Both the position numbers and the translations under genes were made by a program. A stretch of 63,526 bases of DNA, the filler included, from Globobulimina sp. (taxonomy: Eukaryota), in the NCBI GenBank assembly GCA_003354225.1. It is 21 parts of 21 records of this genome, joined end to end, with 100 filler letters (N's around TTAATTAATTAA, not from the genome) between each part and the next. Parts side by side here need not be neighbours in the genome. Positions count along the whole stretch, not along the records: positions 9,094 to 12,024 come from PIVH01004315.1; 20 more parts are not named here. One strand, written 5' to 3'. Positions 1 to 28,000 of this stretch are shown in pieces; within the stretch, counting starts at the first letter, position 1; every line of letters starts with the position of its first letter. The notes beneath the pieces are model-generated. The model ran no database searches and was not told the DNA's origin. It saw only the letters and a list, made by a program, of their open reading frames with translations.

Positions 1-2931
1 ATCATATTGAAAAGTGGTTTGCTTTGAGCAATGTATCGCATTCGTTGTGCAATAAATTCATCGATCGCTTATTTCCTACGTTGCAGCCAAATATATTCAA
101 TGACAAATCGTTATTTAATGACAAATTATTGCGAGTGTCCTCCATCTCGGGCACCAACACCAAACCCATACTCATTAAGAACTTAACGTATTTATTCGAA
201 TGTTTTCCTATTTTCTACGAATTGAGCATACAATTTATACTCAACATAAAACCCTCTGAAAAGCAAAAATATCAAATGTTACTGGAGTGCATTGTGGAGG
301 CAACGCCGCCAAATAATTTGGATTTGTCGCAATCGCGTAGGAAACGGAAAAAATCGCAGCAAATTGACAGTTTATGGATGGATTCGTACGCCGTTACGGA
401 TGAAGATGATGAGGACGATGAGGAGGAGGAGGATGAAGATGATGATATATCATTGAAAATGTACCATCCGTCGTATATTTTAGGTGCCAAAATGGCGTCT
501 GCGAGGGAGGTACATTCGCATCGAAAAATGTGCGAGGAAACACTGAAAAAATTCATTACTGCCAACAAGTTATGTTATTTATTTTTGATTAGTGCAAGGA
601 TTAATATTTGTTTTTGTTTCCAGATTTGATTTGTGTGTATTTTGTGAATCGTATTTGGAACATATTTCTGAGAAATCGACGAGAAAGGCAAAAAAAAACG
701 GATTGTCGTATTTAAAGAGCAACGCCAAACATTTGATCCTTGCGCAATATTTCATGTATAAAGAATGTAAGCGGACGCAGACACAAAATGAGATTATTGC
801 GTGGAAGTTGCAGTTAATGAAATCGCATGATATTATTACACAATCTTTTGTGCCGTTATCGCATCATTTTGGATTCGATAAAGTGTGCCAGTTATTGTAC
901 AATTTCCTATTATTATCCATCTATAACAGCAATATGACCCATTCCACTGAGACCAATATGAAAATTATTAATTTTAATGATATAATCAATGCAAATGAAC
1001 AGAAAAAGTCCTTTCAATCCATTCCTGTGAGTATGGATACATTGGATACTTTGTTTAATATTAATTTGCAATCAATGTCGTTGGAAAGATCGCACATTAA
1101 TTCTTATCTCATTTTAATTCAATTATTGTTAGAAAGAGGGCTGAAATTTGTATCGCAGTATAAAGATAATAATAATTTAGCATTATATGCGCTATATCCG
1201 TCTCGTAATGGTAGCGATTTAAACGAATTGCTGAATACAGCCATAAATATATCCAAATATTTCCCGCCCACTTCGTTGAATGTGAGCAGTATGAATGGCA
1301 TTGGGCAGAATGACGCCGTTATCATTGAGAAATATATGAATGAGCTATGCCATTTGGATGTATTTATGGAGATATTATTAATATTTACATTATTTTCCTG
1401 TATGAGTTTACCAGAGTTTATCAATGATTTGTTGCGATATCCGACCACTAAACACATGATTGATATGATTATCTTACAACAGTGGCAATTGCCTGCAGCG
1501 CAAAAGGAATCTGACATAAATTATGATAAACACAGCGAGATTTTGCAGAAATTTTGTTATCATTTTATTGCCAATGATGGTGACAATGACAGCAAAAATA
1601 CAAATAAAAGTAAGTCATCGTCACCCTCCAAACAATCAAAAAGTAAAAGCGTTGATGTTTTAAACGTAAATCAATGTAAAAATTTAAGCATTTTGATGTA
1701 TAAAGAGAGGTTATATAATTTACCGACGAATATCGTGAATAAATTGAAAGAATTTGAATCCTTATTTTCAATCAGTAAACATTTTTGGAAATATTATCTA
1801 AATAAAGAATTATTGGCCGATATATTATTACGATATAATTACAAAGATATCATTGTGTCGTATATTGCGCATATAAATAATGACAGCACCATCATTCATT
1901 TAGTAAATGAGCGCGTAAATGATCCAATTTTAATAATTCACGCTATATTTGCCATTATTTGTGGTGGTGTGCAGCATAAAAAATATTGGAAATGTTTATT
2001 TGAACTATTTACACGAATTCGAATTATGTTTAAACAGAAAAACATGTCTGAAATCATTATCCAATCCTTATTATTGCAAATAAATTCATTTAAAATGTAC
2101 CATGGGACTCACAGCCGCGAAATATTAGATTTCCCGCATTTGATTTTCAGCGCAGTTTGTCAGAAATCATTACCATTCATTGATTGCAATGCGATGAAGA
2201 TTCAATTATCATCGCATGCAAACAGTGAATATGCAAACATAAATGCCTGTAAATGGTTGTTTGATATCGCATTAATTACGCAAAACAATAATAATTTATT
2301 AATACAGCAATTAAATTCTATCATTACCTTATTAACACAACAAAAATATACACATTTGCATTTAAAATCATATATCAATTTTGCAGCCAAATGCATCGCA
2401 AATAATACTGACAATGAAGAGCTCGCACAGGAATTATATAAGTATGTAATTGTAATATGTGCGTCATTGTTGTCGTATCCATTGGCATTTGCAAAGTTAT
2501 TGCAAGAGAATAATATTGATATTGATATACAGCATATTGTCGAATATGGATTAAAAAAAGCAAAACAAACTATGTGCACATTAATGCAGCCCACCTCAAG
2601 CAGTGATAATTCGCTGTCATGGTCTTTGTTGAGTATAAATCAAACTAATTTTACATTGTTGGCTATCAAAGAAGCAGAGGGTGGAAATTATAAATGTCCC
2701 TTGAATGTAATCATTTGTATGTTGTATATCATTGGTTATTGTAAGAATGTGCAATGTATCGAATGGTTGGAATATATCATATCAAAAGAATTGAAATTAA
2801 AGATATTAATGGATAGCTGTACTAATAATCATTTACAAAAGAAAATACCACAAGAATTGAGATGGAAACTGCTATTAAGATATGATAATTTGCAGTTATA
2901 TTGTTTTATTTATAGGATATCCAATATACAG
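1..2931 (+). CDS. Large helical hypothetical protein, partial at both ends; intron 569-623
   Basis: ORFs 24-629 and 592-2979 join in frame through a 55-nt GT..CAG intron (…ANK|FDLCVF). It has an acidic tract; no family recognised. Confidence 0.7.
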
Positions 2932-3031
2932 NNNNNNNNNNNNNNNNNNNNNNNNNNNNNNNNNNNNNNNNNNNNTTAATTAATTAANNNNNNNNNNNNN
3001 NNNNNNNNNNNNNNNNNNNNNNNNNNNNNNN
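2932..3031. other. Artificial contig linker (44 N + TTAATTAATTAA + 44 N); first of 20 identical linkers
   Basis: The same 100-bp block recurs about every 3030 bp (5963, 8994, 12025, 15056, 18086, 21116, 24146, 27176, 30206, 33236, 36266, 39296, 42326, 45356, 48385, 51414, 54443, 57471, 60499). The 12-mer gives stops in all six frames, and contig lengths fall monotonically from 2931 to 2928. Confidence 0.99.
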
Positions 3032-3059
3032 ACAATCAGTTTCATCCGATGAGGATCCA

Positions 3060-4468
3060 ATGCCTGAATCCACTCCGTTTGCGAAACTGTTGACTAAATC
3101 ATCAAAATCCAATGGCTCTCATGATTTGCAACTTTTGATTGATAATATAGTATTAAATAACACCGTGTCCGAATTGAATGTAAATGATACAATGCCTGAA
3201 ACAATACCTTTTGGGAAACTTTCGACAAAACCATCGAAATCATGTGATTTACACCTTTTGATTGACAATTTAATATTAAATAATACTGTGTCTGCCCCGG
3301 GAAACAGCGAAGAGGATATGACTGTGACAGAAAACGGATACAAACGAATTTATAAAACATGTGACACAGAAAACGAATTCAAACGAACTTATTCATGTGA
3401 ATCAGTTGGAAGTTATGTTACCTGCACAATCAAGAAAATCAGCAAAAAAAAACATAACTCAAATATGCATATGTCTGATAATTTAGTGATCATGAAAGAA
3501 GCCATGATTTTAAAGCATTTAACAACTGATTATAAACTGACTGGTAATTATATCGTTAAATATGTTGATTATTTTGAGTCTGCAACACATTGTTATTTAG
3601 TAACAAAATATATGGATGGCATGGATTTAGCACAATTTATAAAGAAAGCACATAAATATCTGATTAACGGGCAATTGAAATCAAAAAAATATCAAACACG
3701 AATTAAATATATTATGTGGCAGCTGTCAGCTGTACTCCTTTGGTTACATAACGTTTATCATTGTATGTTATGTCTGTGTCTCTGTTATGGATTGCTAGAT
3801 TATGCAATCTGTTATGGAATATATCATATTTGTATACAGGTTGCCATTTAGATCTATGTCTGTCAAATATAATGATTAACAATGTAGGATTCATAGAGAA
3901 ATGTGATGGCTCAGTGCGTATTTATGGTGCAATGTCTGTTCAATTAATTGGTTTCAGCGCAGCGGAAATATTTAATACTGATTACTTAGAAACTGTGGCA
4001 TATTTTAAATGTACCAAACAACTGCAAAGTGGTACTGTGAATCATGAACGATTTAAAGCACCGGATGTGTTTTTTGACGAATGTTGCTATAATGCAAAAG
4101 CTGCCGATATGTGGTCTTTAGGAGTTATATTTTATGAGTGTATGACTGGAGAATCGCTTTTTAAACAACCAAAGAATAAATGCAGTTATTCTACAGTGAC
4201 CGGAAATAATTTGAAACAATGTTTGGTTGCAAATAATTTTTTCTCTAAATTTAAAAACGGATCGTTTTTGTTATTAAATAGTTTGTTACAATTTGATGAA
4301 AATAAAAGATTTACCGCTTTGAATATGGTTGAAAATAAATGGTTTTCCAAATATTATAACAAATATCAAGAAGAAATGAAGAAAAAAATAGTGTCTGATA
4401 GTAAACGTTTGGAAAATAACAGAGAAACTATGAACAATTTTCCATATTATAATTACTCGACATGTTAA
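3060..4468 (+). CDS. Divergent Ser/Thr protein kinase, probable pseudokinase; intron 3763-3839
   Basis: Splicing gives YHCCHLDLCLSNIM (catalytic loop). Also KAPDV and ADMWSLGVIFYECMTG. DFG is replaced by GFS and no Gly-rich loop is evident. The N-terminus carries a ~35-aa tandem duplication. Confidence 0.8.
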
Positions 4469-4786
4469 TTGATGGATTCAGGATATCTTTTCTATTTATT
4501 TTTTATTACACTCCCATTCGTTCGTATTTATATAATATAGTAGATTTATTATTTTTTGCCATATGTGCATGATATATCGTTCTCCTTGCGATATATCATT
4601 TCTCTTGCGTTAAATGATGAAAATTAGATGATTTGTTACTCAGGTGAGTTGTTTTTTGAAAATTAATCGAATAAAGCTGTCAATTATGTAATGTATAGTA
4701 AGTGTACGTTCCGCTATTAATTGAATGGTCATAATGATTACTCATAATAAAGAGAACTTTGATTGTTGATCGACGTGCGATATACA

Positions 4787-5356
4787 ATGGCAATTAAAAA
4801 GAAAGGTAAAAGTAAAAAAACTAAAAAAGGTAACAAAAAAGGGAAGAAAGACAGTTTTAACAAATGTAATAATTTATCAAAAGAAGAATTAATACAAAAA
4901 TGTATCTCTGAGCATATGGATATAATTGAGATGATGTATCATTTCATTTTAGGCCCTTTGAATAAAGCAGAGAAACAAAGAGAGGAATTATCCAAACTAA
5001 AATGCAAAGAAAACGATATAAGATACACTCCGAAAGCATCAATTCCGTTCCATAGATTCCAAACTATCATTGAAACAATGACAGATATTTCAGATGAAAA
5101 GTCAGAAGAAACAGTCGCAACAAAACAAAATAAATTTCAAAAAGAAAGTATAATGTTAGATGTATTTGAATGGTTTGATTTAAGTGGCCGAGGAGTTGTT
5201 TCTTATCAACAATTTGAGCAAAGAATGGGTGAATTTTTTTGTGAAGAAAATGCTTCCAAACCTAAAAAATCCAAAACAAAGACAAAGGCAAAAGGAAAAG
5301 GAAAAAAAGGAAAAAAAGTGAAAAAAAAGGGCGCTAAATCCAAGAAGAAAAAGTAA
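4787..5356 (+). CDS. Small EF-hand-like protein with Lys-rich termini
   Basis: VFEWFDLSGRGVVSYQQF resembles an EF-hand loop. Both ends are K/G-rich. ATG and stop are both inside the contig. Confidence 0.6.
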   Translation: MAIKKKGKSKKTKKGNKKGKKDSFNKCNNLSKEELIQKCISEHMDIIEMMYHFILGPLNKAEKQREELSKLKCKENDIRYTPKASIPFHRFQTIIETMTDISDEKSEETVATKQNKFQKESIMLDVFEWFDLSGRGVVSYQQFEQRMGEFFCEENASKPKKSKTKTKAKGKGKKGKKVKKKGAKSKKKK

Positions 5357-6457
5357 CATAACTATTCTGCCTCGGTGTGATTGGATTTTCTATGCAAACT
5401 CATACAAATTTGACACAGTCTTAATTGAGAATCGTATGCTAATATATACATAATAATAATATCCTGCACTGACAAGCCACGAATTAGTTCACTTACTTGA
5501 AAGGTTTTCACAGTTAACTTTTTTGGCAATGACCTAGTATTTGAAGTTAAAAACCACTCTAGCTAACCCAAAAACTTAGCTAATCATTGTGACGTGCAAT
5601 GTGTTGTATTTATTAAGTTGAATTTTGTCCCACTACTACTTGAAATGAAACGATACGAAACTAAGCCAAAAAAGTTAAATGTAGCATTTAGGAGGATTGG
5701 GATTGATTAAAATAACTGTTCCAATGAAAGTGAGAAAAACATGATCTAAGCGAATATCTTTTATTTCGCGAAATAGAATAAATTTATCATGGATTTAGTA
5801 CATTGAATTCACTCTCTCACAAACAACATAAAAGCAAACATTCAAACATGTTGCATTAAATAATCCAACGCTTGATTAAAACCAACACTATTTGTGTTTG
5901 CAATGGCATCAAAAGCCGCATCATATTCAAATCCCATACTGACCAATGTCTCAATCCATTCANNNNNNNNNNNNNNNNNNNNNNNNNNNNNNNNNNNNNN
6001 NNNNNNTTAATTAATTAANNNNNNNNNNNNNNNNNNNNNNNNNNNNNNNNNNNNNNNNNNNNAATGAGTTCATAGGTGATAGGAGAACTGGATTATAGCG
6101 TTGGTTTGAGATCTGTGTATGACATCTCGAAACAATAAAAAAAAAACGAAGTTCTGAACATTTCCAAAACTTCACAACTGTGTATAATGGATTGTTGGAA
6201 ACAAAAACGCAAACAAAAAAAAATGAATATATTTACTAAACCGTAACTGTTTTGTTTAGGCATATTCACAAAAAATAAAAATACAAAAAACGAATGGCTA
6301 CCACATAATATACATTGTTATAATTTTTTTATTGAGCATTATCCGCATACAATATAAAAATTAATATTATAAATTAACTGACACATTATATTTGAACATG
6401 GCTCCTTTATATAATCAAATAATTATAACAGCAATATACAAGGGTCACATCTGCATA

Positions 6458-8302
6458 TTAATTAAACGCAGAATCGAAATTAAATGTCGTTTCTGGCGAT
6501 TGATTGTATCGATTTTGCATACAAACAGACTGCGAATTATTCTCATATGGTGTGAATATTAACGGATCCACACTTTGTGACATATCATGAATGAATTCGA
6601 ACTGACACGAGAAGCCATCATCATTCACCACCGTGTCATCTATCACTGGCAATAATGTATCCATTGCAATTGGTGGTGATATCGATGGTGTCGGCAATGG
6701 CGGCAATGGTGGCTGCATCACTTGAATTGGTGCTGTTTGTACATGCATCTGCGGTGAGGGCACTGCTAAAGGTCTGTCATAATATACATGATGCGGTGGT
6801 GCTATTGGTGGTGGTTGATGCGGATATAATGGCGGAGGAAGAGCGTGCATCTGCATATTGTAATGCGTCCTACGTTGATTTATTATAAATTTTAAATGTT
6901 GTATCTCCTCACGTAATGCATCATTTTCTCTTCGAATATCTACTGCTTTTCTCAACATTGGCCTTACCATCGCACCAACATTGCCATTGTCAGGACCATA
7001 GGGAGCAAATGTCGGTGACATGGATATTGTTGATATAGTGGTACGGTCATCAGCGGCATGCATTGTATTCGTATTTGTGCAGTTTGTGCAATCCGAACAG
7101 AACTGGTTATTATAATTATACTCCTCGGAGACTAACGCATTTATAGCAGAAACATCTCCGATGGATTCCATATCAAATTCATTATTATTATTCATAGATT
7201 TGTGCTGTGTTTGACAATGTTTTCTTGCACAATTTGCTTTTTTCCTGATTCTGTGTTGCCGTTGCACTCTTTTTCTATAATTTGCTTTAGTTTCTCTCCC
7301 TTTTCTGTCTCGAAAACTATGCGTATTGGTACGCGTGGCTTGAAACTGTCGTTTTTTTCTTTTACGCGTACAATGAACGTCGAGCGAAGGTGGTGTATTG
7401 GAGGATGATGATATATTGCTAACCAGATCAATCTCATCCTCATCCTCATCGCTCTGCATATGATCCTCACCATCAATATCAACATGTTTTAACTCATCAA
7501 AATCGCCAAAATGAATATCATCCGCTAATATTAAATCATTTCCATTGAACGGTAGATTTAATAATGTGCACACTTTGCGTTTTTGTTGTAAATATTTTTG
7601 ATTTGTGTATCTTTTCCATTTAATAAAGAAATCCGCAGCAATAATATTTGATTTTTGCTCCTTTGTTTTTCGCGCAGCTTTAGCACATTGAATGAATTTA
7701 CCAACAGTTAATATCTTATGCAATTGCTGTAATTCAGTATGGATTCCCTGCGATTTTACTAATGTTCGATGGCGCATTAATGGCTTTGGTTTGGTGCGAT
7801 GGAATTTTATTTCTTCACTAAACAATGCGTTGGCAAATGATAAACAGAGCAAGTCTCTGACTTCGCGTCTCATGGCTTGGCAATCCATTGTAAATGAACA
7901 GTATTCGCATAAAAGTGCTAGAAACTATGTTATTTGTACATATTGTACATATACAACAGTTACATAGCTTACATAGCTTACACAAAAGGCACAGACAGTA
8001 AACAAATAATAAAATGTAAAATTAACTTGTCTGACTTTTTTAATGTAGGGCGCAAAAAAATAATCACCAGATATTTTCCACGAGGTCTGGTCTTGATGAT
8101 TTTTGGCCTTTTTTACAAATTTCTGGAAGGTGTCAATCAAAATTATTTCGCCATTTGCGTCTGCTTTTTTGCATTGTTTTATTTGAACGCCGTCCCATTT
8201 ATTTATTTGTATATTGGTTTGTTTTGCTGCGTTGTTTATGATCTCATCATCATCGATGAAATGCGGGGCATCTTTGCGTCTGGAAAGGCCTAAGTTTGTC
8301 AA
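6458..8302 (-). CDS. Hypothetical multi-exon protein with acidic, basic (NLS-like), coiled-coil and Pro-rich segments
   Basis: A 476-aa ORF plus upstream ORF 7925-8302 separated by intron-like AT-rich sequence. The 5' structure is unresolved. Confidence 0.5.
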
Positions 8303-9134
8303 TTCTTTTTCTGCCTACTTATGATTGTTGTGTTTGTTATGTGATAAATTATAAAAATAAATTCTAAACTTTATGGACGCAGTTCTTTATTCCTCCTCTT
8401 CTTTCACGTAAATGTTGGTTGATTCGCTCCTGTTGTTTATAGATTGGATGTTTTAACATGTTTTGCATAAAGATATGTGTATACAAATGTTAACTTCGGA
8501 TTCATATCTTGCTTTTTTATCAAATTGAGAATAATTTGGACAATATTTTAATACTTCACTTGATAAATGTGGTTCATATTCATATTGTGAATTCTTTTTT
8601 TGCTGTCGACGACGTGACATTGCGTATTGTATTGACATATGTGATCAGGATGATAAGAGCAAAAAATGAGAACAGATTAAGTGAAATGTAAATTTGAAGT
8701 TTGGAAATTCTACGAAAACCTTGACAGCAGTATAACATCTGGTACCTTTCGAAGGATTTAAAATATAAAATTCAAAAGCTCGTAACACAAAAAACAAATT
8801 CAGTTATCATGAATGAATGATAACTCTTAACGTATATATATCAAACACACTACAAAATTAAACAAAAAAGTAATCTACAAATACGAAAAAAAATAAAAAA
8901 GCAAATGCATTGGGGTTCATTTTGGTTAATCAAGTGTCATTTTATTTGGCCAAATTGGGGATTTTGCCCACAACATACAACCAAATTAACACANNNNNNN
9001 NNNNNNNNNNNNNNNNNNNNNNNNNNNNNNNNNNNNNTTAATTAATTAANNNNNNNNNNNNNNNNNNNNNNNNNNNNNNNNNNNNNNNNNNNNAATAAAT
9101 AGAGAATTTTTATGAAATTAAATATAAAAATAAA

Positions 9135-10286
9135 TTAATGTTTTTTATGTATCAATCTTGATATTGCTTGTTGATATTTATAATATATGTTTAATGTAAT
9201 TTTTTCTCTAACTTCAATAGGTAATAATTCCATGGCTCTATAAAGTATTTTGTTTATGATTTTTGTATTAATGAAAGTTTTTTGATATGTGCCATATTCA
9301 TTAATTTGTATTTTATTTTCATCGGGTTTCCACCATTTATTATTTAATAAATAAACCTTATTGTTGTTCATATATATTTTGATTTTTTCTTTTTTGTTTA
9401 CAATGTATTTATTTATTAATTGACTTCTTTGATCATAATCGATATGTTTGCACCTTCTGATATCATAAGAATTCCATTCATTGCAATTTATAAATGTCTC
9501 ACATACAATTTGTTTCATTGATAGATATTTTTCTTTATTATCATTAATAATAATGTATCTTTCTTGTAATGTTAGCATAATTCCATTGATATCTTGCTTA
9601 ATATTTGAGGATTTGCATACAAATGACCTGATTTTGTTTGACTCTCTTGTTGTTTCGTAATTTATTTTGTTTTCATCACCAATCGATATCGTCATGTCAC
9701 ACATTTCAACTTTTCTGTTTTCGATATCAATGTCCGTTTCAAAGTCAAATTGTGGATAAATTGTTGTAATGATAATATTTGCTTCAGTTTCTGTTAAAAT
9801 TGGATCTTTGGGGATGATGGTAATGTCATCCTTGTATCTTATCAATGCCTTGCAATTATTATCAATTATTTCATAATTCGTAATCTCGTGCACTCTCATT
9901 ACCAATGAACAGTTGTCATTTCCTGATTTGCTGCCTTGTACTTGCGAGTTAATTATTTTCTTCGTTGTGTCATTATAACTAAAATACGCATTGTCATAAA
10001 CGTGATTGGTGGCAGTATGGAATAAATTTACTTCTTCATCGGTTACATAGTTGGGTGGTAACAAGTGATTTTTTTCTGTTTCATACGATTTATGTACCAT
10101 ATCACCATCAATATGGTCGTACATTACGTTAATGTCCGAAATGAATATAATGTCATTCTCATTCAATATTAAATTATTGTTCAATTCATCTAATTTTATC
10201 ACAATGTCTCTAATGTCATCGCTTTCAAATGTTTTGTTTGGATGATAATGAATTAAGCCATAATTAATTTTTCTCGCCCCTTCCAA
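9135..10286 (-). mobile_element. Reverse transcriptase of a Penelope-like retroelement, 5'-truncated
   Basis: RT motifs in order: FISDINVMYDHI (A), SQVQGSKSG (B), LIRYKDDITII (C), VEMCDMTI (cf. LPFLDVxI), then FVCKSSNI (cf. the Penelope YLxxxSxHP region). Intronless and very AT-rich. Confidence 0.75.
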
Positions 10287-10315
10287 ACGGTTATAGGAAT
10301 TAAGCCATAATTAAT
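10250..10315 (+). repeat. 19-bp direct repeat GAATTAAGCCATAATTAAT at the 5' break of the RT ORF
   Basis: Copies at 10250-10268 and 10297-10315. AAACGGTTAT and AATAATTATTCCA are also duplicated within the next 100 bp. Confidence 0.85.
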
Positions 10316-10498
10316 AAAAAACTGCTTTTTTACTCAACAAACGGTTATCAATAATTATTCCAGTTTTTCAAGATTTCAATAATTATTCCAATTTCTACAA
10401 TTATTCAGAATCCAAATAGGTAAACCCTTTCGAAAATCGTAATATACATTATTGATTCTGAAAACAAGATTGTTTTAGCAATGTCAGAATAAGTCTGA

Positions 10499-12024
10499 TC
10501 AATCCGAGTCATCATTATCCGATTCGTCTGTCCATGTACAATCAGTTGGTTCTTCCCTTAAAACATCCAAATAGTCTTTTTCTAAGAAGCCTAAATTTTC
10601 CCTTGCCTCTGCAAATTCGCCTTCTGCCATTCCTTCAGCAACATACCAATGAACAAAGGCTCTTTGTGAGTACATTAAGTCATAACTCTTTAATATTCGC
10701 TCCCTCAAAAATCTAGACATCAATGTATTGTTTCCGATTGCTACGGCACTGCGTTCTGGCACTCCCATACAATCAGTATCCGATATGACTGCTTTGTGTT
10801 CATGCAATCCAATCCCAAACCAAGTTGGACTCCATTCTATTTATATTATATTCCATGACACCATGACACAAAAAAAGATCGTTAAATTATAAACATACCA
10901 ACAAACGTTACTTTTTTACCAACTGTCAATTGTTTCAATGCAATGTTGGCTTTGTCTCTTTCAACATTCCCTCGAAAATACGTAGAAATTGTCATATATT
11001 TATCTCGCTCAGCATCAAAATCCAAACATTCCACCATAAAATTATCCGCATCGAAAGCTTGTTTTGCAATGTCATAAACCGTAAACTTTGGACATCCGAC
11101 ATCATAAACGGAGTAAATTATATTCATCAAATCTTTATATAACAAACCATCGTAAAGATGTTCGCTTATTCTGTCATTAAAACTGCTTCTCACGAAACCA
11201 TCCACCAATATTCTTTTATTTTGCATGAATGTCTGTTTATTTATAATTGGAGCAATTGAAGTTGTCAGAAAATGTAATCTTGGAAAATCACAGCGAATTT
11301 CATTCAAATCGCGATTGAGCTCACTTTCGAATCTAATCCCTGCCGTACACGCACAAACTACTTTGGATATAATGTTATTCAAATCATCATAACTCGGAGT
11401 TGGAACATATAATTTCCCATTGCATATATCATATACTTTTCTGTTGTCGAACACAAACGACCACTCCGTATGATCCAGAAGCCAATGGGTTGCTAATAAA
11501 GCGTTATATGCTTCGACCTGACCCGTTGAATATCGATTGTTGAATGGATAAATATGGAAACCTAATTTTGATTTCTTCCGATAATCCACGGCAATTCTTT
11601 CCAATATTAAAGCGGCTAAACCTGAACCTGTGCCACCTCCGACTGCATTATTCATGACAAAACCTTGTAAATTGTCGCATTTATCCACCAATTTACGCAA
11701 TCTGTCATTGACTTTGCCGATGAGTTCTTTACCAACACTGTAATGGCCGCGAGCAAAGTTGTTTGCTGCATCCTCTTTTCCTGAAACTAAAAATTCTGTA
11801 TCAAAAATCTTTGAATATTTACTGTCAATAACATTATCAATGATATTCGCTTCTAAATCAACCATTAAATTGCGTGGAATGAATTTGCCGGATTCAGTTT
11901 CTTCATAAAAACATAGCAATGATCGGTTCGTGTCGTCTGCTATATTTCCTTCAGTGTCAATGGCATGCTCAGCGCAATATTGTCTCCATATAGTTTGTGC
12001 TAATGGAATGCCAGCGCAGCCAAC
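10499..12024 (-). CDS. TUBA: Divergent alpha-tubulin, 5'-partial; intron 10837-10898
   Basis: GKEDAANNFARGHY, GGGTGSG, FPRLHF, FVEWSPT (after splicing) and YSQRAFVHWYVAEGMAEGEFAEARENL are alpha-tubulin signatures. Confidence 0.93.
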
Positions 12025-12124
12025 NNNNNNNNNNNNNNNNNNNNNNNNNNNNNNNNNNNNNNNNNNNNTTAATTAATTAANNNNNNNNNNNNNNNNNNNN
12101 NNNNNNNNNNNNNNNNNNNNNNNN

Positions 12125-14696
12125 TACCGAACCGAGTTATGAATCACCTAAGGACGAAGGAGCAGCGCCCGAGGCGGCCGCGAATGACGACGACACCAAA
12201 AAAGTGGAATTCCCTGAATCCCGCAAACCTGATTTCACCGCAGACGCTGAAGACGCGAAACAAACCGAGAACTTCCAGTTCAACGCCGACATCGCGCAAT
12301 TAATGAGCTTAATTATCAACGCCGTCTACTCCAACAAAGAGATTTTCCTTCGCGAATTGATCAGTAATTGCAGTGACGCGTTGGACAAAATCCGTTATGA
12401 GTCCTTAAACGACAAAGAGGCCTTAGGCGCTGAGGCCAATTTGAAGATCGAGATCATCCCCGACCCGGCCTCGCGTACACTGACCATTCGCGATACGGGC
12501 ATTGGAATGACGAAGGAAGACTTGGTGAACAACCTAGGCACCATTGCACGCTCCGGAACCAAGCAGTTTATGGAGGCCATTGCCGCTGGCGCTGACATCT
12601 CCATGATTGGGCAGTTCGGTGTGGGCTTTTATAGTGGGTACTTGGTGTCTGATAAAGTGGTGGTGCGCAGTAAGCACAATGACGATGAACAATATGTATG
12701 GGAGTCCTCTGCCGGCGGCACTTTCACGGTCCGCCCTGACACGCATTCCCCTCATCAGTTGGTGCGAGGAACTGAGATCACGTTGTTGTTAAAAGAAGAC
12801 TGTGCCGGTTATTTGGAGGACAAAAAAGTGAAAGAAATTGTGAAGAAACACTCGCAATTTGTGTCGTTTCCAATTAGTTTATTTACCATTAAAGAAGAGG
12901 AAAAAGTATGTTTTTATATCTCATATCTGCGCTTTTGCGCTTTTTTTTTATGTGATTAATCAGCGAATGTTTTTATGATTTTTATGATTGTTTTTGTAAT
13001 TTCAGGAAATTGATGACAGCGACAGCGATGACGACGATGATGATGAGGAGGATGAGACTGCGGATAAAGATGAGGCTGAAGCCACTGTGGAGGTCGCCAA
13101 GAAGGAGAAGAAAGAGAAGAAGACAGAGACTGTCAAGAAACAAGAATGGGAATTGTTGAACAAACAGAAGCCGATTTGGACCAGAAACCCAAATGAAATC
13201 ACAAAAGAAGAATATTCCGCATTTTATAAGTCGATCAGCAACGATTGGGAGGATTTCTTAGCCATTAAACATTTCAGTGTTGAAGGACAATTAGGTATGC
13301 TTTTCTACACTTATTTTCAGTTTGAAACTGAATTTTTTTTGTTCATTTTCAGATTGAAATGATGTGTTTTGATAAAATTTCAGATTGAAACTATTTTTTT
13401 TGAGTTTCAAACTGGAAACGTTTTTGAGTTTGAGATCATATTTTTTTTTTTGCGTACACAGAATTCAGCGGATTATTATTTGTGCCAAAACGCGCACCAT
13501 TTGATATGTTTGAACCTTCGAAAAAGAAGAATAACATCAAATTATTTGTGCGTCGTGTGTTTATTATGGATGACTGCAAAGAATTAATCCCCGAATGGTT
13601 ATCCTTCATTCGTGGCGTCGTCGATTCTGAAGATTTGCCATTAAATATCTCGCGAGAGTCCTTACAGCAGAACAAAATCTTAAAATTGATTAAAAAGAAT
13701 TTAGTCAAGAAGTCGTTGGAAATGTTCGCGGAATTAGCTGAGAACAAAGATGATTATAAAACGTTTTATGAGCAATTTCATAAAAACATCAAATTAGGCA
13801 TCCATGAGGACAGCAAAAACCGCAAAAAAATCTCCGATTTATTGCGATATTCATCCACCAAAACCTCCGACAAAGAGATGGTATCACTCAAAGAATACGT
13901 GGCTCGCATGAAAGATGACCAAAAAGCCATTTATTACATCACCGGCGAAAGCAAAGCCGGCGTGGAAGCGTCGCCATTTTTGGAGGCCTTAAAAAAGCGC
14001 GATTTGGAGGTATTATTCTTAGTGGACCCCATTGACGAATATGCGGTGCAGCAATTACGCGACTATGACGGCAAGAAATTGCAATGTGTGACCAAGGAAG
14101 GACTGGATTTGGGTTTGACTGAGGATGAGAAGAAGAAGAAAGAGGACGAAAAGGCGTCGTTTGAAGGGCTCTGCAAGAAAATGAAGGAGATTTTGGGCGA
14201 TAAGGTGGAGAAAGTGATCACTTCGGACCGTATGGTGGAGTCTCCGTGCTCTTTGGTAACGGGCGAATATGGCTGGAGTGCCAATATGGAGCGCATTATG
14301 AAAGCACAAGCATTGCGCGACAGTTCGATGACGAGTTATATGGTCAGCAAGAAGACCATGGAAATCAATCCCAAACACGCCATTGTGTCGACGTTGAAGA
14401 CTCGGTTTACCACCGATCCCTCGGATAAGACCATTAAAGATTTGGTGTGGTTGTTGTTTGAAACCTCATTGTTAACCAGCGGGTTTTCGTTGGATGAGCC
14501 GGTTAAATTTGCCGGACGTATTCATAAATTGATCAAATTGGGTTTAGCCATATTTGAAGATGATGGCGATGAGTCTGAGGAGGATGATGATGATTTACCA
14601 GAGGAGGACAAAGAGGATGATGCTGAGGACGATGATGATGATGAAATGCCTACATTGGAAGAAGAGGATATTTCTGCCATGGAAGAAGTCGATTAA
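12125..14696 (+). CDS. HSP90: Cytosolic HSP90, 5'-partial; introns 12906-13005 and 13295-13461
   Basis: [56 protein letters not shown] and C-terminal MEEVD. Both introns restore the frame. Confidence 0.99.
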
Positions 14697-15155
14697 ATTG
14701 GTTTTAAATATAATTGACATGAATTTAGCTTTTTTTTTTGGTTTTATATTTATTGTAGTGTTTTTCGAAGAATATACTCGATAAATCTATCTATTTTAAA
14801 TTTGAATTAAAAGAATTACATTTTATTAAGTTAAAAGTTTAAAAATGAAACAAAAAAATCAAGCATTTTGCTTGATTAAACTGCTAATGAAATTGATACC
14901 TAGCTAGGTGTCGTTAATTGTTTTTGCAAGCTAGTCACTTCAATTATCTGAGAAACGCTTTGTAAATCCAGAAACTGTTTGCCATAGGTTTGTCTTGGGT
15001 TTGCAAATCGAGAACAAAGTCAAATTTATAATTGAATTTTCGGTATACAAAGGGTNNNNNNNNNNNNNNNNNNNNNNNNNNNNNNNNNNNNNNNNNNNNT
15101 TAATTAATTAANNNNNNNNNNNNNNNNNNNNNNNNNNNNNNNNNNNNNNNNNNNN

Positions 15156-17562
15156 AAAAAAAGTTAGAGTCGAAACAGAAAGGTAAGTCTTTTAATTTCG
15201 ATGACGTTAAATTGAAGGAAGCGTTGGCTGATAATGAGAGATTAAAACAATTACTACGCAACAAAGAGGACATAATACAGCAAATGGAGCATGATTTGAA
15301 GTGTCAGCATGACACAATCGATGACATAAACAGTACGTACAGCAAAAGTAGTAAACAGTTGGAAACAAATATTGCTGTTGGAAATGATACAATTGCTGAG
15401 TTGCAAGATGAAGTTATCAGATTAAGGGAGCAAATGAAGAATGATCGAGAGTTACAGGCCTCGTTTGCAACACACAAACAACAGTTATCTAATATGGTGA
15501 ATGAGTCAATGGCTGATCAGACCACAGCGACCGTGTCGGCTTTGACTGAATTACAGAAACAACAGGAACAGTTCTATCATTTTATGCAATCAATGCAGAG
15601 TAACATTGAAAAGATATACGACAAACAACATGAACATGACAAGGAATTTGTGGAATTAAAAAATAAGGAAATGACTGAGAATCATAATTATAATAACAGC
15701 CAAACAAATAAATATGAATATTTTAATGATGTCGATTTTGATAGCATGGATATGATGGAGTTCAACACAAAAGTGGACAGTATCAAACGTGGCAAAGATA
15801 GATTTTCTACAACATCGGACAGCAATATTGCTGCTGATACGTTGTTAGCTGCTTTGACACCAAAATCTAAAACAAAACAAGAAACGAATGGTATGCGTTT
15901 TTATAGGTTTTATATTTTATTTTGTTTTCAAAATTGTGTACCATCACAGAAGCAGAAACTAGCGATGATGAGTTTGGAAACGTTGTAAATTCGATGACAT
16001 CATATTTGCAACGAGCAAGAACAGAGCGGTTGGAGTCATTGGATGAGAAAAAGGAGGAACAGAGTCAACAGACAGAGTGTGAATTTATTAATAATTTAGT
16101 AACGAGTGTGAGTAAACAATCACAGCATACAGATGGTGGCACTGACACTGGCACTGGTTACAGCATTGGGAAATGTATAGACATATTGGACTCGAGTTAT
16201 TATTGGTACTCTGCGAAGATTGTCGATATTGACGGGTTTAGGAAAAATGCATTAAAAGTGCATTATGATGGATTTGATAATAAATGGGATGAATGGATAC
16301 CATTCAAGCAATTATTCCGCATTGCTGCGCATAAATCGAGGTCACAATCGTCAGAAACTAATAACAATGAGAACCGTGGCGTTCATGCATTGCTGGCGAC
16401 GAATTTTTCCAAATTAACGTCTGGGAAAGATTTGAGAGCAGCATTTGACATAAATAATGAGAAATTATTGACTGATGTTAATGTGCTGTTAGAAGGGTAT
16501 TTATATAAAAGAGGCACTTGGAATGACTGGAATAAGCATTGGTTTTGTTTGCGGAATAAAAATGATAGAATTAAGCTATTTTATTATGCGAATCGGAAGA
16601 AGGCCACCCGTAAAGCCCAGGGAGTCATTAGTTTGCGCAAAATAAGAAAAATTGTCACTGCTAATTACGGGCATACCCAGTTTTCATTTGATATCCATGA
16701 AAAGTTTGACTTTGCCACTGGAGTGTTTGGAACTTTTCATGTCAGAATGAAAGTGAATTGAAAGACTGGATCACTGTTTTAGAATGCTGCAAAAATGTGC
16801 CTTTGGATAGTATTGAACCAAATGTCAATGCAAATGATGTATTGACTGCGGTGTCGTTGTCTTCATTGCGCAGTATACGAAAACCAGTGTATTTTGAGAA
16901 ACAGCCATTGGAATTGTCAATATTGCATGCATTGAACTCCTTGTTTCAGGAGAAAAAGTATACAGTGCAAGATTTGGAAGTTGTTTGCCAGTCATTAGCA
17001 TTGAATAAATTTGTAAATCCGCACAAGTCTGTATTCCAAAAGAGTAGCTACGATGTGAATGTATTAAACTGTGCTACAAAATGCAAAGGTTGACGTACAA
17101 TGGTTTGATCGCAGGAAAACAGAAAAAGAATTAAATATTTTGAATCAAGAATGGTTAGTTCCGCAGGATAAATTTAAAGAATTTGTAGGATTTATTTTGA
17201 ATATGGCGCTAAAACAATCATTGTTTGTGAAACGAAGACATTGGTTAACAATTAAACGCATTGAACATATTTGGTACATGTTCGATTCGCGAGAAATAAA
17301 ACCAATAAAATATAAAACTGAAAATGAAATAAATGTGTTGCAAAAATGGCTTGTTGATGTATGTAGTAATAAAGATGCGCAGTTATTGATTTGTAGGAAA
17401 TTAAAAAATGTTCAACGTCAATCATCGAAAAGTATGAAGGTTTTGGGTTTGATGGATGCACCGAATGATAAAGCTAAAAAGCCACGGAAAAGAGGTTCAT
17501 CTGTTGGTGGAGCATTTGGTGCACTTAAAACGTCATTGTCTTTGAAGAGTTTTGGAGATTGA
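15156..17562 (+). CDS. Coiled-coil / Tudor(MBT-chromo-barrel)-like / PH / Josephin-domain protein; intron 15891-15949; two frame disruptions
   Basis: Tudor-like WYSAKIVD…VHYDGFDNKWDEWI. PH: EGYLYKRGTWNDWNKHWFCL…ELKDWITVL. Josephin: VYFEKQPLELSILHALNSL…NPHKS…YDVNVL…WFDRRK…RRHWLTIK…YMFDS. The frame changes near 16722 and 17067. Confidence 0.8.
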
Positions 17563-17639
17563 ATATATTATTTTGTGTGTGTGCGCTGTGCTATATATCA
17601 AATATGTTCTTAAGTTTTGAAGATTTTCTCTTATATTGG

Positions 17640-18047
17640 CTATAGTATGAGAAAGTTTTTACGAAATCTATAATAATGAGGACACGGAATTTCGGATTTG
17701 CTCATGGCAATCAATTCATTAAGTACATATGTTTTCCGTATGATCTCTTTATCTTTGAATTCATTAAGGAATTCTAGCCTATCCATCGGTTTCATATCTT
17801 GCGTGAAACATTGTTGAAAGAATTTGAACCGATTATATTTTTGTTTCATCATCATTTCACCAAAATTTTCTGATTCATACATCCATTGTCCGATAACATT
17901 AATTTCGAATATCTTATAATAGCCTAGTTCATAACAGTTATTATTTTCACGGTGCCAAATTTTGCCTAGTTCTTGCTTTGATTGCAGACCATGTCTGTTT
18001 ATCATTTGTCTGACAGATTGAACAAACGAGAGGCTTGCTGATGACAT
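17640..18047 (-). CDS. Hypothetical protein
   Basis: 135-aa ORF convergent with the Josephin gene; no motif recognised. Confidence 0.4.
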   Translation of the reverse strand: MSSASLSFVQSVRQMINRHGLQSKQELGKIWHRENNNCYELGYYKIFEINVIGQWMYESENFGEMMMKQKYNRFKFFQQCFTQDMKPMDRLEFLNEFKDKEIIRKTYVLNELIAMSKSEIPCPHYYRFRKNFLIL

Positions 18048-18185
18048 AGTAAGTTGTGTTGCGACTCTGTTTTTACTTCTGCAAANNNNNNNNNNNNNNN
18101 NNNNNNNNNNNNNNNNNNNNNNNNNNNNNTTAATTAATTAANNNNNNNNNNNNNNNNNNNNNNNNNNNNNNNNNNNNNNNNNNNN

Positions 18186-20780
18186 GATGGATATTCACAT
18201 ATTCGTTGATAAATAACACTATTATATAATATTGGTTTTTTTTCTGGAACATGCGTTGGATGAAGAAAGGCACCGCCTCCACCACTTACAATTAATGTTG
18301 CACCCACATTCGGCATACTATTAATTTTATTATAATCCGAAATATCACATTCTGATTGCGATCGTTTCAAATTTGATGTTGATTTTAGTGCTACCGGTAC
18401 CGGCATGCTATCATTGCTGTCATTATTCTTATTGGTACTTGACATCATATTGTATTTTAAACCGGATTGTATGGCAGATTCTGATTCATGTCTGGTATAA
18501 TTATGAATGTCGCCGGCTAAGCGTAACCGTAATCGGTCACTGCCAATAACATTATTAATTAAGTATTGCAGGTTTGAGCCATAGTTTTCATGTTCATGAT
18601 CATTTATTATCCAATCTGGCAAATGCGTCATTATTATTACACGTTCACTTCGATTTTCATCATCAAAATAAGTTTCCACGATTTTGGCAAAGTACTCAAA
18701 TTGTTTTGGATCAATATCACCGTTTAAGGCATAATCCGCCGCAAATATCCACCTAAAAATAATCAGTACATAGAAACATTTGTCAATGTTCAAAACAAAT
18801 ACTTACCAATTATGTGGCAGCGCAGTCACAAAATAACTCGATGTCTGTGGCAAATACCAGCCCCCCAACCAATTGCGACTACAGATAAATCTGCAAAATG
18901 TCTGTAAACCATCGTACCAATCATGATTGCCTGGTATTATTAAACAGGTTGGACCTGCGTAGGATTCTAAATCACCATTATCCGGCAACTCCGGTTTGCG
19001 ATATGATATTTCTGGGCATATATTCCCTGCTTTTAAATTATTAATAATATATTGTGGCGGACGCATTGCGTCTTCAAATACCCTGAAAAACTTTTGTTGA
19101 AAATTCAATGCTGTGGGTCCAGGATAGGATAAATCACCACCAATCAGTAACAATTTCGCGCGTTTTAGTGTTATATCATTGGTTCCAATTAAGTACGGCT
19201 GTGCTAATAACCTCGCAATCTCGTAACCAGAATGAAACCCATCACCACAATCAGCCATAAAATCAAACCATAATTCATTTTTATTTTGCAAATAACCAAA
19301 ACACGATGAATTGCATTGTTCATAATCTGTCAATGCTGATGGACTTCTATCTATATTCGAAAAGATAATACTTGAATTCGAGTTAGATTGCTCTATATTG
19401 GCATGTTCCATTGATGCAAAAGAAAGAGTATAATTTATTTTTGCTTTTTTTCGCTGCTGTTTTTTCTGTTTTTCGTCCCTATTCGTAATAGCTTTCAACG
19501 CATCCAATGACTTATTCAGTTCTCTCTTATCATAGCGATCCAAAAAGATGCCCAAAGCGATCACAATATCCAACAACACCCAGCCGGTACTCATAGCGAA
19601 CCAGGATACCATGGGATGAATGTTACGCGGCTCTGCAGAGTGCACAATGCGGCGAATAATGGTATGTTGAATCACAAGCGTTGCTTCATTTGTTTTTAAT
19701 TCATTTTCCAAAACCATATCAGTGTTCACATCAGATGACGGTGACCTTGTTGCCATCTCAGATGATGGCGATTTTGTTGCAATATTTGTTGGTGCTGCTT
19801 CAGTCACGATTTCAGTTTCGATATATTCAGTAAGTTGATTCAAATCAGATTCTGAAAAGAATATGAACCTCTCCTTAGAAGTGCCTTCAATGAGATAATT
19901 AACGCAAATTATAGTAACACCAGTTAACCACATGGTTAATACCGGTGGTATGTCGGTATAATTTTTGTTGCCAGTCCCAGACAATGCGACTGTTTGGAAT
20001 AACTTTTGGCAAAATATGACTGATCCATCCACTTGAAAGCCAACTGATTTTTCACTGAATATCTCGAAGGTATTGGCATTGCCGCAGGTCGCATATAAGG
20101 TGGAGCAGGCCAAGGAGATGAAGGCTGAGGATTGCAATATTTCAAATATGCGCTTTCGAATTCCAATGTGGAATACAAATATACGATTTAATATGAGACG
20201 GAATGTAGCATTTATTATGGAGACAGTGAACACTGTCAAAGCATAAAAATAAGGAAATAATGCTAAGGGTTCTTCGACTAAATAGTATAAAATAGGCAAA
20301 TGAGAGAGCATGGAAATGAACAACCAGCAGTATATGAAATAGACCAAAAACGAATATCCGGTAAACTCTTTGTTGCGGATATATCGCAGTTGATAGATTG
20401 GTGAGGAAAACAATAAAAATGAGATGAATAATATCAAGTATACTAATGATATGGTGGCGGTGGAGTGTTTTATTATTATTGTACTCAAATGATGTGGCGC
20501 GTTTTGAATGAGTGATTCAAAGAATTTCGATGTATTGGATGTATTGTCATTAATATTGTTTGTAAATTTAGCGTCAAGCTCTTCGAATTTAAATGATGTT
20601 GTCATAAATTGACAGAAATTATCATAAGATATGTCTGCATAACGAATCCAAACCAATAATGAAGATATGGTTAATAATGACAGTAAATCTGATCTGCGAA
20701 ACCACCATGGCAGTTTGATTGGGACTGCATGTGCTACAAATTTACGAACACGTGAAGGTGTATTTTTATTGCTTAACCCT
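18186..20780 (-). CDS. Multi-TM calcineurin-like metallophosphoesterase (family of plant At4g11800-type proteins); partial; intron 18753-18806
   Basis: WFDFMADCGDG, IGGDLSYP, IPGNHDWYDG, THLP, AGDIHNY and VSGGGGAFLHPTH motifs, preceded by several hydrophobic helices. Confidence 0.9.
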
Positions 20781-21215
20781 AACCTTAGACAAAGTTCTCT
20801 ATAGTATTTTGGAGCAATACCACCATCAAATGTCCATTGCCTTGCTCGCTGCTAGTATCCGTTACAGTATTACCAGTCATGCCGGCATCAGTGTGTATGT
20901 CAACAAAGTTCTTGACGTTTGACAACACGTCTTTGGGGAATTCCTTCCTATGTCCCACCGCATACTTGTAGAGTTCAAGGATATCCTTAGCATCACCTCG
21001 CACAGCTTGTGGTCCACGCCTCTTCTTGATCTGCATCGCCTGTAGACCGGGCTTGCTCTCAACGGATATTCCATTGTCCTTCAAGTCTTCAATATATCGC
21101 CCATGTGCCGCTTTGNNNNNNNNNNNNNNNNNNNNNNNNNNNNNNNNNNNNNNNNNNNNTTAATTAATTAANNNNNNNNNNNNNNNNNNNNNNNNNNNNN
21201 NNNNNNNNNNNNNNN

Positions 21216-21364
21216 AAGGAGCACCAAAAGGAGATGAAAACGGCCAACCAGGAATATGTAGTGATGGTGGTGATGGTGGATATGGGAGAATAAGAATAGA
21301 CACCGGGAATCTCAATAAAGTTGGCAATGTAGTACCAAATGTTGGATACACCGCAAAATATTAA
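21216..21364 (+). CDS. 3' end of a Gly-rich protein
   Basis: The frame reads GAPKGDENGQPGICSDGGDGGYGRIRID…AKY* from the contig edge. Confidence 0.45.
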
Positions 21365-21614
21365 ACTTTTTGTACACAGTTAATTATAGTAATTAATTTT
21401 CAAGTTAATTTTCAAGTTCATTCAAGGAATACAAAGGGTGGTACGTATAAATTAGTTGTGTGTAATATTGGTCAAGGTACAGAGGTACAGCTTTTATCAT
21501 ATAGGCCATTGTAGTCATGTATTTATATAACTACACATTTTATAATATCTTTACTACAAAAAAAAAGGAAAATCTTTTTTTGCAAAGTCAAATAGTCAAT
21601 CATCGCGCTTAAAA

Positions 21615-23592
21615 ATGTCGACACGAGACACAAGACGACCAAACAGCAGAAGAGTAAGGAAAAAGAGATCAACCACACTTGATCCATCCACAAATATTGG
21701 CCTTTATTCCTCTCTCTCATCGTCACCATCACGAAAACCATATAAAAAATTAAAACGTGATCATAAATCTGAGCGTGCCATCAAATCGAAATCGCCAAAC
21801 TATAAAAGCAAACACAAACATTCACGGCATAGAGCAGCCTCTGATGCGCCATTAAAAGCCGAATTAGCAGCAATTTCACTTAAATTAGATACAAAAAGAA
21901 GCAAGAAACGAAAAACGAAAAAATATAACTCACAAACACCTGTCAATGATTACTTTGATTCGTACCCATATGCCACAAACGGTGATTATAAAAAGGCCAA
22001 AAAATCGAGCATGACACCAAAAGTGTCATTGTCAACATCCATCCAAGAATCATTATTTTCGAGCGATGATGAATTGAATGACAATAATCATATAAATGAT
22101 GCACAGAATAATAACAACAGCAGCAACCTGAACGAAATTAGAATATTAACAAATTCACACTCAATAACCCAAGCAAGCAAAAATTTAAGTTTTGTACATA
22201 AAAAGCTAAAAAAAAAAATAAATTCCAACTTCTCCCAATTTCACGGCGCATTAAACGAGCAACAAAGCAAATTATTGGACGATTTAGAAACTTTCTACGC
22301 CGACAAACAAGGCGAAATCATATCGATTGAACGCAAATTATTTGAAAATGCTCGAAAATCTAAAAATATCAAAGAAAAAGAGTACGAATTTGATACAAAG
22401 ATTAATTTCGTTATCAATACAACAAAAATATTGTCTCAAATTGACAAATATGGCCTCATTGAAACCACTAAAAATGCCAAAAAAAATCCAATTGACAATG
22501 AAGTGGATGACTTAAAGAGCGATGAAGATGATGTCTGCGATGATGGTGACAATGAGACCGATACAATGGCCATGAAACAGCAATTCATTTTAAGTGAGAT
22601 CCAAAAGCAAACCATGAATAAATTGGATGTGGTGATATTAATGGAAAAAGAGGCTAAGAAAAAAGCGCAGCAAGCGGCCAAATTGACGCGTGAAGTGGAG
22701 GACGGATTGGCGTTCATTGCAGAGCGAAGGAAGATAATTGCCGATAAAATCGCCATTGCAACGCCAGAATTGGAGAAGGCGCGAGAAGCGGTGAGGGGCA
22801 TTGATCCAAAAGATATCAATGAGATAAAATCGCTTAAATCGCCACCGAGTGTTATTGAAAATGTTATTACTGCGACTGTTATGATTTTAGGTTTGTGGAA
22901 ACGGCATACATTTGTATGCTTTTTTGTACTTGAAATGTTTTCTATGTTTTCGCACTGCACTGCGCATTGTATATTTGTGCATTATTTGGTATACAAAGTG
23001 CTTCCGAATATGTACGTACTTGTTTTTTTTTTTTACTTTGATGTGCAGCGATTTTATGTAACTGCGTGCGTTGCGTATATATTTTTAGCTTTTTTGTATG
23101 TGTTAAGGTCATAAGATTGGGCAATGGCGAGATGTGCAAAAGGTGTTAAGTTATAAATTCAAGCCAGAATTACTAAATTTTGACACTTATACATTATCGC
23201 CGGCGACTCGCAAGGCAGTGTACAAGAAATATTTAGGAAGCTCAGATTTTAATTATTCGCGCGTTTATTCCGGAAGCAAAGTATGCGGCTCTTTGTTAAA
23301 TTGGGTACTTTCCCAAATTAAATATTCACGATTATTGGATGTTATTATCCCGTTAGAAAAAGAGGTAAAAAAATTGAAAAAACAAAGTAAAAAAAAAGAG
23401 AAATTGGCTAAACAATTAATGAAAATTGTAAACGAATTGGAAGAAAATATTAAATTATATACAAATCAATGCAATCAAATGATTGATCATATCATAAAAT
23501 CTACACATTACGAATTGCAACAATTTAGCGATAAATTACAACCATTAAACGATAAATTTAACCAATTATTAAGCAATAAGGTGCTTGACTGA
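21615..23592 (+). CDS. Stand-alone dynein heavy-chain stalk/microtubule-binding-domain protein (586 aa); intron 22891-23107
   Basis: The spliced C-terminal half (ATPELEKAREAVRGIDPKDINEIKSLKSPPSVIENVITATVMILGHKIGQWRDVQK…FNYSRVYSGSKVCGSLLNWVLSQIKY…IPLEKEV) matches the cytoplasmic dynein CC1-MTBD-CC2 region. No AAA motifs are present. Confidence 0.88.
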
Positions 23593-27175: not shown

Positions 27176-27275
27176 NNNNNNNNNNNNNNNNNNNNNNNNN
27201 NNNNNNNNNNNNNNNNNNNTTAATTAATTAANNNNNNNNNNNNNNNNNNNNNNNNNNNNNNNNNNNNNNNNNNNN

Positions 27276-27863: not shown

Positions 27864-28000
27864 ATGCTCAAATGGTTGTTTGGTCAATAGAGTTATGACT
27901 TTTTTCTTTGTCATGTGTGCCGGATTATAATATATAACGTTTTTCCGATGTTGTTTGAACAGTTTTTCATTTTCCAGAACTGAAGTGTTTGTTCAGTATA

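Follow-up and report, generated by a model that had tools for sequence, protein, structure and literature searches.

The window analysed here, a stretch of 63,526 nucleotides from Globobulimina sp., carries on one of its contigs (9094..12024) an alpha-tubulin gene whose M-loop, the loop between strand S7 and helix H9, is occupied by a long in-frame insert. The gene lies in two exons (Table 1) and is intact apart from the cut made by the contig end, which trims about nine N-terminal codons. We refer to the window protein as P0001 and to the public relatives collected for comparison by other P numbers. Exon B encodes S9 through H12 and, in translation, an acidic tail ...TDESDNDDSD; its product aligns at 67% identity with the C-terminal part of P0009 and at 62% with that of P0005. 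No second tubulin was found in the window by tblastn with two tubulins as queries.

P0001 matches the Pfam families Tubulin (PF00091; 168.8 bits against a cut-off of 33, E = 2.2e-49) and Tubulin_C (PF03953; 47.5 bits against a cut-off of 26.6, E = 2.5e-12). A phmmer search of the PDB returned 170 sequences at E <= 0.001, the best 60 of them all alpha chains (1.9e-83 to 4e-77), and the nearest proteins in a 5.8-billion-cluster collection are tubulin alpha wherever they are named. The nucleotide-binding signature of the T4 loop, GGGTGSG, lies at residues 129-135, and G129, G130, G131, G133, S134 and G135 are invariant in the alignment of P0001 with its relatives. In alpha-tubulin, Asp251 and Glu254 of the T7/H8 region supply the missing part of the next beta subunit's active site; DLNE of the window copy faces D251-I-T-E254 of chain 6u42, and the equivalents of both acidic residues are thus present. 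The H11-H12 segment is also well conserved in the window copy.

The alignment to solved alpha chains breaks at the M-loop: query residues 1-264 pair with residues 9-277/279 and query residues 314-375 with 284/286-342/344, leaving 49 query residues opposite 6, a net insertion of about 43. The insert (NKQTF...GCPKF) is preceded by ...RLHFLTTSIAPII and followed by TVYDIAKQAF..., so that 53 residues stand between APII and TVYDIAKQAF where solved alpha chains and insert-less alpha2-type chains have about 10. Among 142 tubulins with both landmarks, the spacing from PRLHF to [DG]KY is 45 residues in 125, 42 in 10, 46 in three and 29 in one; spacings of 88, 81 and 86 occur only in P0001, P0009 and P0087. 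The first-pass annotation of this DNA had called an alpha-tubulin with an insertion of about 43 residues in the S7-H9 M-loop, and on identity, size and site it was right, its limits (11085..11245) lying 2-4 bases off ours.

Table 1. Features of the insert-bearing alpha-tubulin gene, in window coordinates.
Feature	Position	Strand	Description
Exon A	10899..12024	-	375 codons plus one base, the first, of a GAA (Glu) codon split by the intron; open frame, Pfam and PDB matches; GTPase domain, intermediate domain and insert; 5' end cut by contig end
M-loop insert	11083..11241	-	53 codons, N262..F314 of P0001, replacing about 10 canonical alpha-tubulin residues
Insert block 1	11188..11217	-	KRILVDGFVR, K270..R279; in predicted helix 1
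Insert linker	11143..11187	-	S280..L294; variable; six residues longer in P0003, shorter in P0009 and P0087
Insert block 2	11101..11142	-	LYKDLMNIIYSVYD, L295..D308; forms predicted helix 2
Intron	10837..10898	-	62 nucleotides, GT..AG; interrupts the Glu codon of ...KKVTFV-E-WSPTWF...
Exon B	10499..10836	-	Remaining two bases of the Glu codon, then 111 codons and a stop at 10501..10499

We aligned Logan contigs from four of eight listed runs to 10400..12024. One run (X4, record 19) holds the unspliced genomic form, covering 10628-11405 with the intron included and no differences. A second (X5, record 27; 1079 nucleotides, 12 differences) covers 10628-10836 and 10899-11768, skipping exactly the 62-nucleotide intron, with no joint, indel or difference within the insert; the two differences listed in 10899-11272 are both synonymous and both outside it. 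Two further contigs, X1 record 1 (1095 nucleotides) and X3 record 14, have the identical joint between 10836 and 10899 and no indel, and belong to a variant about 93% identical to the window copy. The joint-side lengths at 10836/10899 are 209 (X5), 255 (X1) and 49 (X3) nucleotides, the three intron-less runs come from three studies, and no joint within 10899..11768 was found in any of the four runs. Because the intron is absent and the insert nevertheless unbroken in the contigs of three runs, the insert is not itself an intron. The first-pass annotation had named removal of the insert by splicing, a want of spanning reads or an unexpressed pseudogene as grounds for refutation; the insert is retained in contigs from which the adjacent intron has been removed, and the frame is open.

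X1 and X3 thus carry a second intron-less, insert-bearing copy, and the organism code of one of them is also that of X4, in which the genomic form occurs without differences. Such a pattern points to two or more close paralogues or alleles.

The window protein is not alone. The first-pass annotation had proposed a look for orthologs with a like insert, and relatives of this kind exist: five further public sequences (P0003, P0009, P0087, P0123 and P0124) carry a homologous insert of 46-59 residues in the same position. P0003, a 337-residue fragment with the source label Bolivina argentea, is the closest protein in the 5.8-billion-cluster collection (69% identity), and its insert is 59 residues long, six more than in P0001, the extra ones lying in the middle; P0009 (489 residues) and P0087 (491 residues) are both full-length, with inserts of 46 and 51 residues. 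P0123 (E = 4.9e-10) and P0124 (E = 2e-7), tubulin fragments running from S7 into the insert, were among five proteins at E <= 0.001 in a HMMER scan of 1.84 billion representatives with a 67-residue insert query. The insert motifs occur in six of the 155 proteins collected. Searching with a profile of all six sequences gave no further member among the best 120 of 6802 matches, and scans of Joint Genome Institute (JGI) metagenome contigs gave 351 pattern matches with the 67-residue insert and 284 with a four-row insert alignment, none confirmed in either case. A word-index search with residues 256-322 gave three candidates, none of which scored; it missed P0003 too and is uninformative on absence.

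All insert-bearing members share two conserved blocks joined by a linker of variable length. Block 1 follows the pattern K-[RK]-h-L-[VI]-D-G-[FY]-V-R, with K270, L273, V278 and R279 invariant in all six sequences, and block 2 the pattern L-Y-x-D-[LIV]-M-N-[IM]-I-Y-[SC]-V-Y-D; in the window protein block 2 is amphipathic (hydrophobic moment 0.56). Identity in the insert and in the rest of the protein is 37/53 and 188/266 for P0001 with P0003, 21/45 and 182/324 for P0001 with P0009, and 24/44 and 256/439 for P0009 with P0087. By these counts, conservation of the insert comes close to that of the remaining protein. Relative to the 93% variant, 19 codons are non-synonymous and 14 synonymous among the differences listed; the six non-synonymous changes among those listed for the insert fall in its first 25 residues and none in its last 28, leaving block 2 without any.

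An AlphaFold2 (AF2) model of P0009 built from 136 aligned sequences has a mean predicted local distance difference test score (pLDDT) of 85.2 and a predicted template modelling score (pTM) of 0.88. In this model S7 (266-272) is followed by a helix at 277-295 that contains block 1, a short loop, a helix at 302-312 that contains block 2, and H9 (323-330). The insert is modelled with moderate confidence, mean pLDDT values for its blocks being 65-87. Foldseek aligned the model to alpha-tubulin chains at template modelling (TM) scores of 0.92-0.96, normalised to the target, in the 50 rows listed. The model thus predicts a module folded as a hairpin of two helices, set between S7 and H9 in a protein whose core is otherwise that of a normal alpha-tubulin.

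We placed the family with a quick IQ-TREE analysis (35 rows, 450 of 705 columns), from which the insert columns were left out because they are filled in less than half of the rows (only four rows). P0001 pairs with P0003 (Shimodaira-Hasegawa-like approximate likelihood ratio test, SH-aLRT, 97), and the pair is joined by P0009 and P0087 (SH-aLRT 99). This four-sequence clade is nested among alpha2-type rows; 33 rows are split from two alpha1-like rows, P0048 and P0071 (SH-aLRT 100), both of which look like assembly chimeras. Long branches in three of the four clade rows make long-branch attraction possible. A change from DNEA to DNR[KQ] is common to the insert-bearing clade, and an extra residue in YPFNN is found in all of it except P0003; the shared insert and these two features each argue independently for a single origin.

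The motif HWLLDH is present in 119 of the 132 proteins collected at that stage, Nonionella stella and Globobulimina turgida being named examples, and the nearest named relatives of P0001 are labelled as Bolivina argentea and these same two species. We infer that the HWLLDH-bearing foraminiferal alpha-tubulins (P0005, P0007 and P0011 among them) correspond to retarian alpha2. The divergent foraminiferal paralog that the first-pass annotation had in mind is borne out by the motif and by the nesting among alpha2-type rows. Some of the collected sequences look composite. The transcript-derived P0119 resembles canonical alpha1 over roughly 95 N-terminal residues (with a long H1-S2 loop) and the alpha2 type thereafter, and is probably an assembly chimera; signs of duplication or chimerism are also seen in the alpha1-like P0048, P0071 and P0004.

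The source of the insert was sought inside and outside tubulin. The insert alone matches nothing in Pfam at E <= 1. The first-pass annotation had matched it to a recurring module, a claim that is not supported: tblastn of the insert against the whole window at E <= 100 recovers the insert alone, what follows it scoring E = 0.26, and an exact 6-mer occurs at 54814 without sharing a frame of interest. An internal tubulin duplication, suggested by the likeness of H7-like YDDLNNIISKV to YKDLMNIIYSV, was rejected because the insert scores no better against the rest of the protein than shuffled sequences do (281 of 1000 shuffles reach the score in P0001, 776 in P0009, 279 in P0087 and 942 in P0003). 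The ankyrin-like repeat protein P0125, found in the 1.84-billion scan at E = 1.2e-5 summed over six repeat stretches, was also rejected, Ank_5 being below its cut-off and the hhalign probability 3.5%; P0126 and P0127 from the same scan are multi-stretch repeat matches of a similar kind. Residues 262-332 of P0009 returned only tubulin C-terminal fragments from the ESM Atlas, driven by the flanks.

The retarian alpha2 paralogue is a divergent tubulin of foraminifera and radiolarians with relaxed conservation of its lateral (M-loop, H12) and longitudinal surfaces, a variable M-loop, and two groups in foraminifera (Krabberod et al., 2017, PMC5455982). P0001 has in common with the foraminiferal sequences taken here as alpha2 the motifs HWLLDH and KVNDRLRKLVD.CDN.QGF, a shorter H1-S2 loop and the spacing of DFDAE.DKY, and it branches inside the alpha2-type rows. 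It differs in that alpha2-type sequences here have a 10-residue M-loop tip (the spacing of 45 in 125/142), whereas members of the P0001 subfamily have 46-59 residues, and in the subfamily's DNR[KQ] and, P0003 excepted, its extra YPFNN residue. The text of PMC5455982, as far as it is used here, does not mention an insertion in the alpha2 M-loop, and its supplementary alignments may show one; one of its two foraminiferal alpha2 groups may be the insert-bearing clade. In our full-text literature searches no account of a retarian alpha-tubulin with an inserted M-loop came up, and PMC13371060 yielded nothing relevant.

The nearest analogue in print is Tetrahymena BLT1/BLT4, expressed isotype-specific tubulins with heavily substituted lateral surfaces at the M-loop and H3, which are proposed to alter lateral-contact elasticity and protofilament number in particular arrays (PMC3382179). 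These are beta-like, however, and have M-loop substitutions and a single inserted Ser283 in place of a module of about 50 residues. Foraminiferal beta2 and the helical-filament transition (PMC4990898; Habura, 2005 and Hou, 2013, via PMC5455982) are similar in combining a lineage-specific change at lateral-contact regions with an alternative polymer, but the changes are beta-tubulin substitutions, and the modelling in PMC4990898 used a conventional alpha-tubulin 82% identical to bovine. According to the abstract of that paper, it is the longitudinal contacts that are believed to be lost in helical filaments and the lateral ones that persist, the reverse in emphasis of the first-pass statement that they lack normal lateral contacts. 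Any link between the insert-bearing alpha subfamily and helical filaments would be hypothetical. Of the first-pass interpretation as a whole, what stands is the alpha-tubulin, the M-loop site and the alpha2-type placement; what is not supported is the recurring module and the contacts ascribed to helical filaments; and its two proposals on function, a loss of standard lateral contacts or a displayed docking module, are conjectural.

We think it moderately likely that the gene represents a small, apparently undescribed foraminiferal alpha2-type subfamily in which the M-loop tip has been swapped for a conserved module of 46-59 residues, remodelling the lateral contact. In the microtubule wall the M-loop sits between protofilaments and nearer the lumen. 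A module of two helices, some five times as long as the normal loop, could not fill the neighbour's pocket as an M-loop does, and the hairpin would be wedged in between protofilaments or else extend into the lumen. Since the nucleotide site, T7/H8 and the outer H11-H12 surface are retained, dimerisation and polymerisation with a new bridge appear most likely. The protein would still bind guanosine triphosphate (GTP), pair with beta-tubulin and enter polymers. Normally the M-loop makes lateral contacts by docking onto H1-S2/H2-S3 surfaces of the adjacent protofilament (PMC11156431); the M-loop side of this subunit would be unable to make that canonical bond, and the hairpin would instead make a different, bulkier lateral or luminal bridge, altering protofilament spacing, number or stability. 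Candidate settings are the specialised reticulopodial microtubules and their helical-filament or paracrystal forms. With such a module in place of the short loop, an unusual tubulin lattice is probably what P0001 builds or tunes.

A more specific form of this proposal, which we entertain tentatively and consider rather unlikely, is that the hairpin acts as a strut between protofilaments carried by the tubulin itself, in effect its own microtubule inner protein, and so sets a non-canonical foraminiferal lattice. If it were true, the product could be a helical-filament or paracrystal storage polymer or a microtubule of unusual protofilament number, with a geometry encoded by an isotype-specific M-loop and not by accessory proteins.

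Several observations weigh against a remodelled lateral contact in a working subunit. The AF2 model of the window's exon-A product is unusable (mean pLDDT 49.2), so the hairpin is taken from P0009, a relative only 53-55% identical, and the conserved Asp-Gly of block 1 falls inside predicted helix 1, which is unusual in a helix. The end branch of P0001 is 0.59, compared with 0.14 for P0003, making it the most divergent member on its side of the clade; it keeps 143 of the 191 columns that are at least 90% conserved in insert-less alpha2-type tubulins, and has Cys instead of Gln in the VGQAG motif. Among the differences listed relative to the 93% variant, six insert codons are non-synonymous and two synonymous. 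The runs X5, X1 and X3 are not on record as RNA, and "spliced transcript" therefore rests on the intron-less joint itself. The equivalent of Glu254 is replaced in P0009 (Thr) and P0087 (Asp) and kept in P0003 and the window copy, so the subfamily is not uniform at the longitudinal catalytic site. Finally, the effect of the insert on lateral contacts is an inference.

The T7/H8 region is more widely rewritten in the two full-length relatives, SFGGDMMSTF and DDIINFDDIQ occurring in P0009 and P0087 where the alpha2 type has ELNVDLNEF.

The equivalent of Glu254 stimulates GTP hydrolysis in the next dimer, and its loss from P0009 and P0087 would fit an end, edge or non-dynamic role. Together with a bulky element, predicted to be structured, at the site of the lateral bond, this is what speaks for a rather unlikely alternative, that the protein is a non-polymerising or lattice-terminating tubulin whose hairpin blocks lateral association, capping sheet edges or protofilament sides, limiting protofilament number or sequestering its beta partner, and is not a regular lattice subunit. 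D251 and E254 are, however, kept in the window copy and in P0003; the retained outer surface of H11-H12 suggests exposure on a polymer wall; and block 2, being almost wholly conserved, looks more like the site of a specific contact than a mere steric block.

Two strongly conserved blocks and a length-variable linker are also typical of a small binding element, and the first-pass annotation had offered as its second idea a module displayed from the lattice. In this form the hairpin would recruit a microtubule-associated protein (MAP), a motor adaptor or a luminal protein, and the lattice would remain near-canonical. We regard this as improbable: no similar module is found elsewhere, whether in Pfam at E <= 1, as a second copy in the window, or in the 1.84-billion scan, which gave tubulin fragments and three repeat proteins, one of which was tested and failed (the hhalign result above). 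Moreover, a loop between protofilaments and facing the lumen is a poor site for cytoplasmic partners.

A decaying, functionless paralogue, that is, a transcribed pseudogene with an M-loop disrupted by junk, would account for the long end branch, for the loss of several otherwise conserved residues and for the non-synonymous counts given above, and the 25 alpha2 copies of one foraminifer (from the text of PMC5455982 used here) make redundancy plausible. It is nevertheless very improbable, as 487 codons are open across two correctly spliced exons; the blocks are kept in six sequences from several sources with length changes in frame only; the insert is as conserved as the core; and neither the GTP motif nor the T7/H8 residues nor H11-H12 have been lost. 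That the 159 nucleotides of the insert are an in-frame or retained intron or an annotation artefact, the mature M-loop being normal, is largely refuted and scarcely credible: the gene does carry one short intron of comparable size (62 nucleotides), and GT and AG dinucleotides occur in the insert, but the true intron is skipped in three of four runs without any joint inside 10899..11768, the insert protein is 70% identical to that of P0003 with length differences of whole codons, and excision would delete the M-loop itself.

The interest of the favoured reading, a subfamily with a replaced M-loop tip, lies in the bond that the M-loop makes. The M-loop is among the most constrained parts of tubulin because the side-to-side bond closes the microtubule wall, and a conserved alpha-tubulin subfamily with an M-loop module of about 50 residues would amount to a natural experiment on rebuilding that bond. 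Foraminiferal microtubules convert reversibly to helical filaments and assemble unusually fast, which makes an isotype with a re-engineered lateral surface a testable candidate for part of this behaviour. The two block patterns, K[RK]hL[VI]DG[FY]VR and LYxD[LIV]MN[IM]IY[SC]VYD, provide a simple sequence marker for surveys of retarian transcriptomes.

The surroundings of the gene have to be read with the make-up of the window in mind. It joins (1..63526) 21 unrelated contigs of 2928-2931 bp each in descending order of length, through linkers of the form N44-TTAATTAATTAA-N44; because the contigs are concatenated, gene adjacency across segments is artificial and neighbours are uninformative on linkage. 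On the tubulin contig itself, 3' of the gene and on the same strand, 9135..10310 (-) is an open frame of 391 codons rich in Asn, Ile and Lys; it matches no Pfam family at E <= 0.01 and could represent either a gene particular to the lineage or a frame open by chance in AT-rich DNA. The next contig carries, at 12126..14696 (+), an intron-containing gene for a cytosolic HSP90 with the C-terminal MEEVD, in which Pfam places HSP90 on 13434..14696 (E = 3.1e-177) and HATPase_c on 12126..12959.

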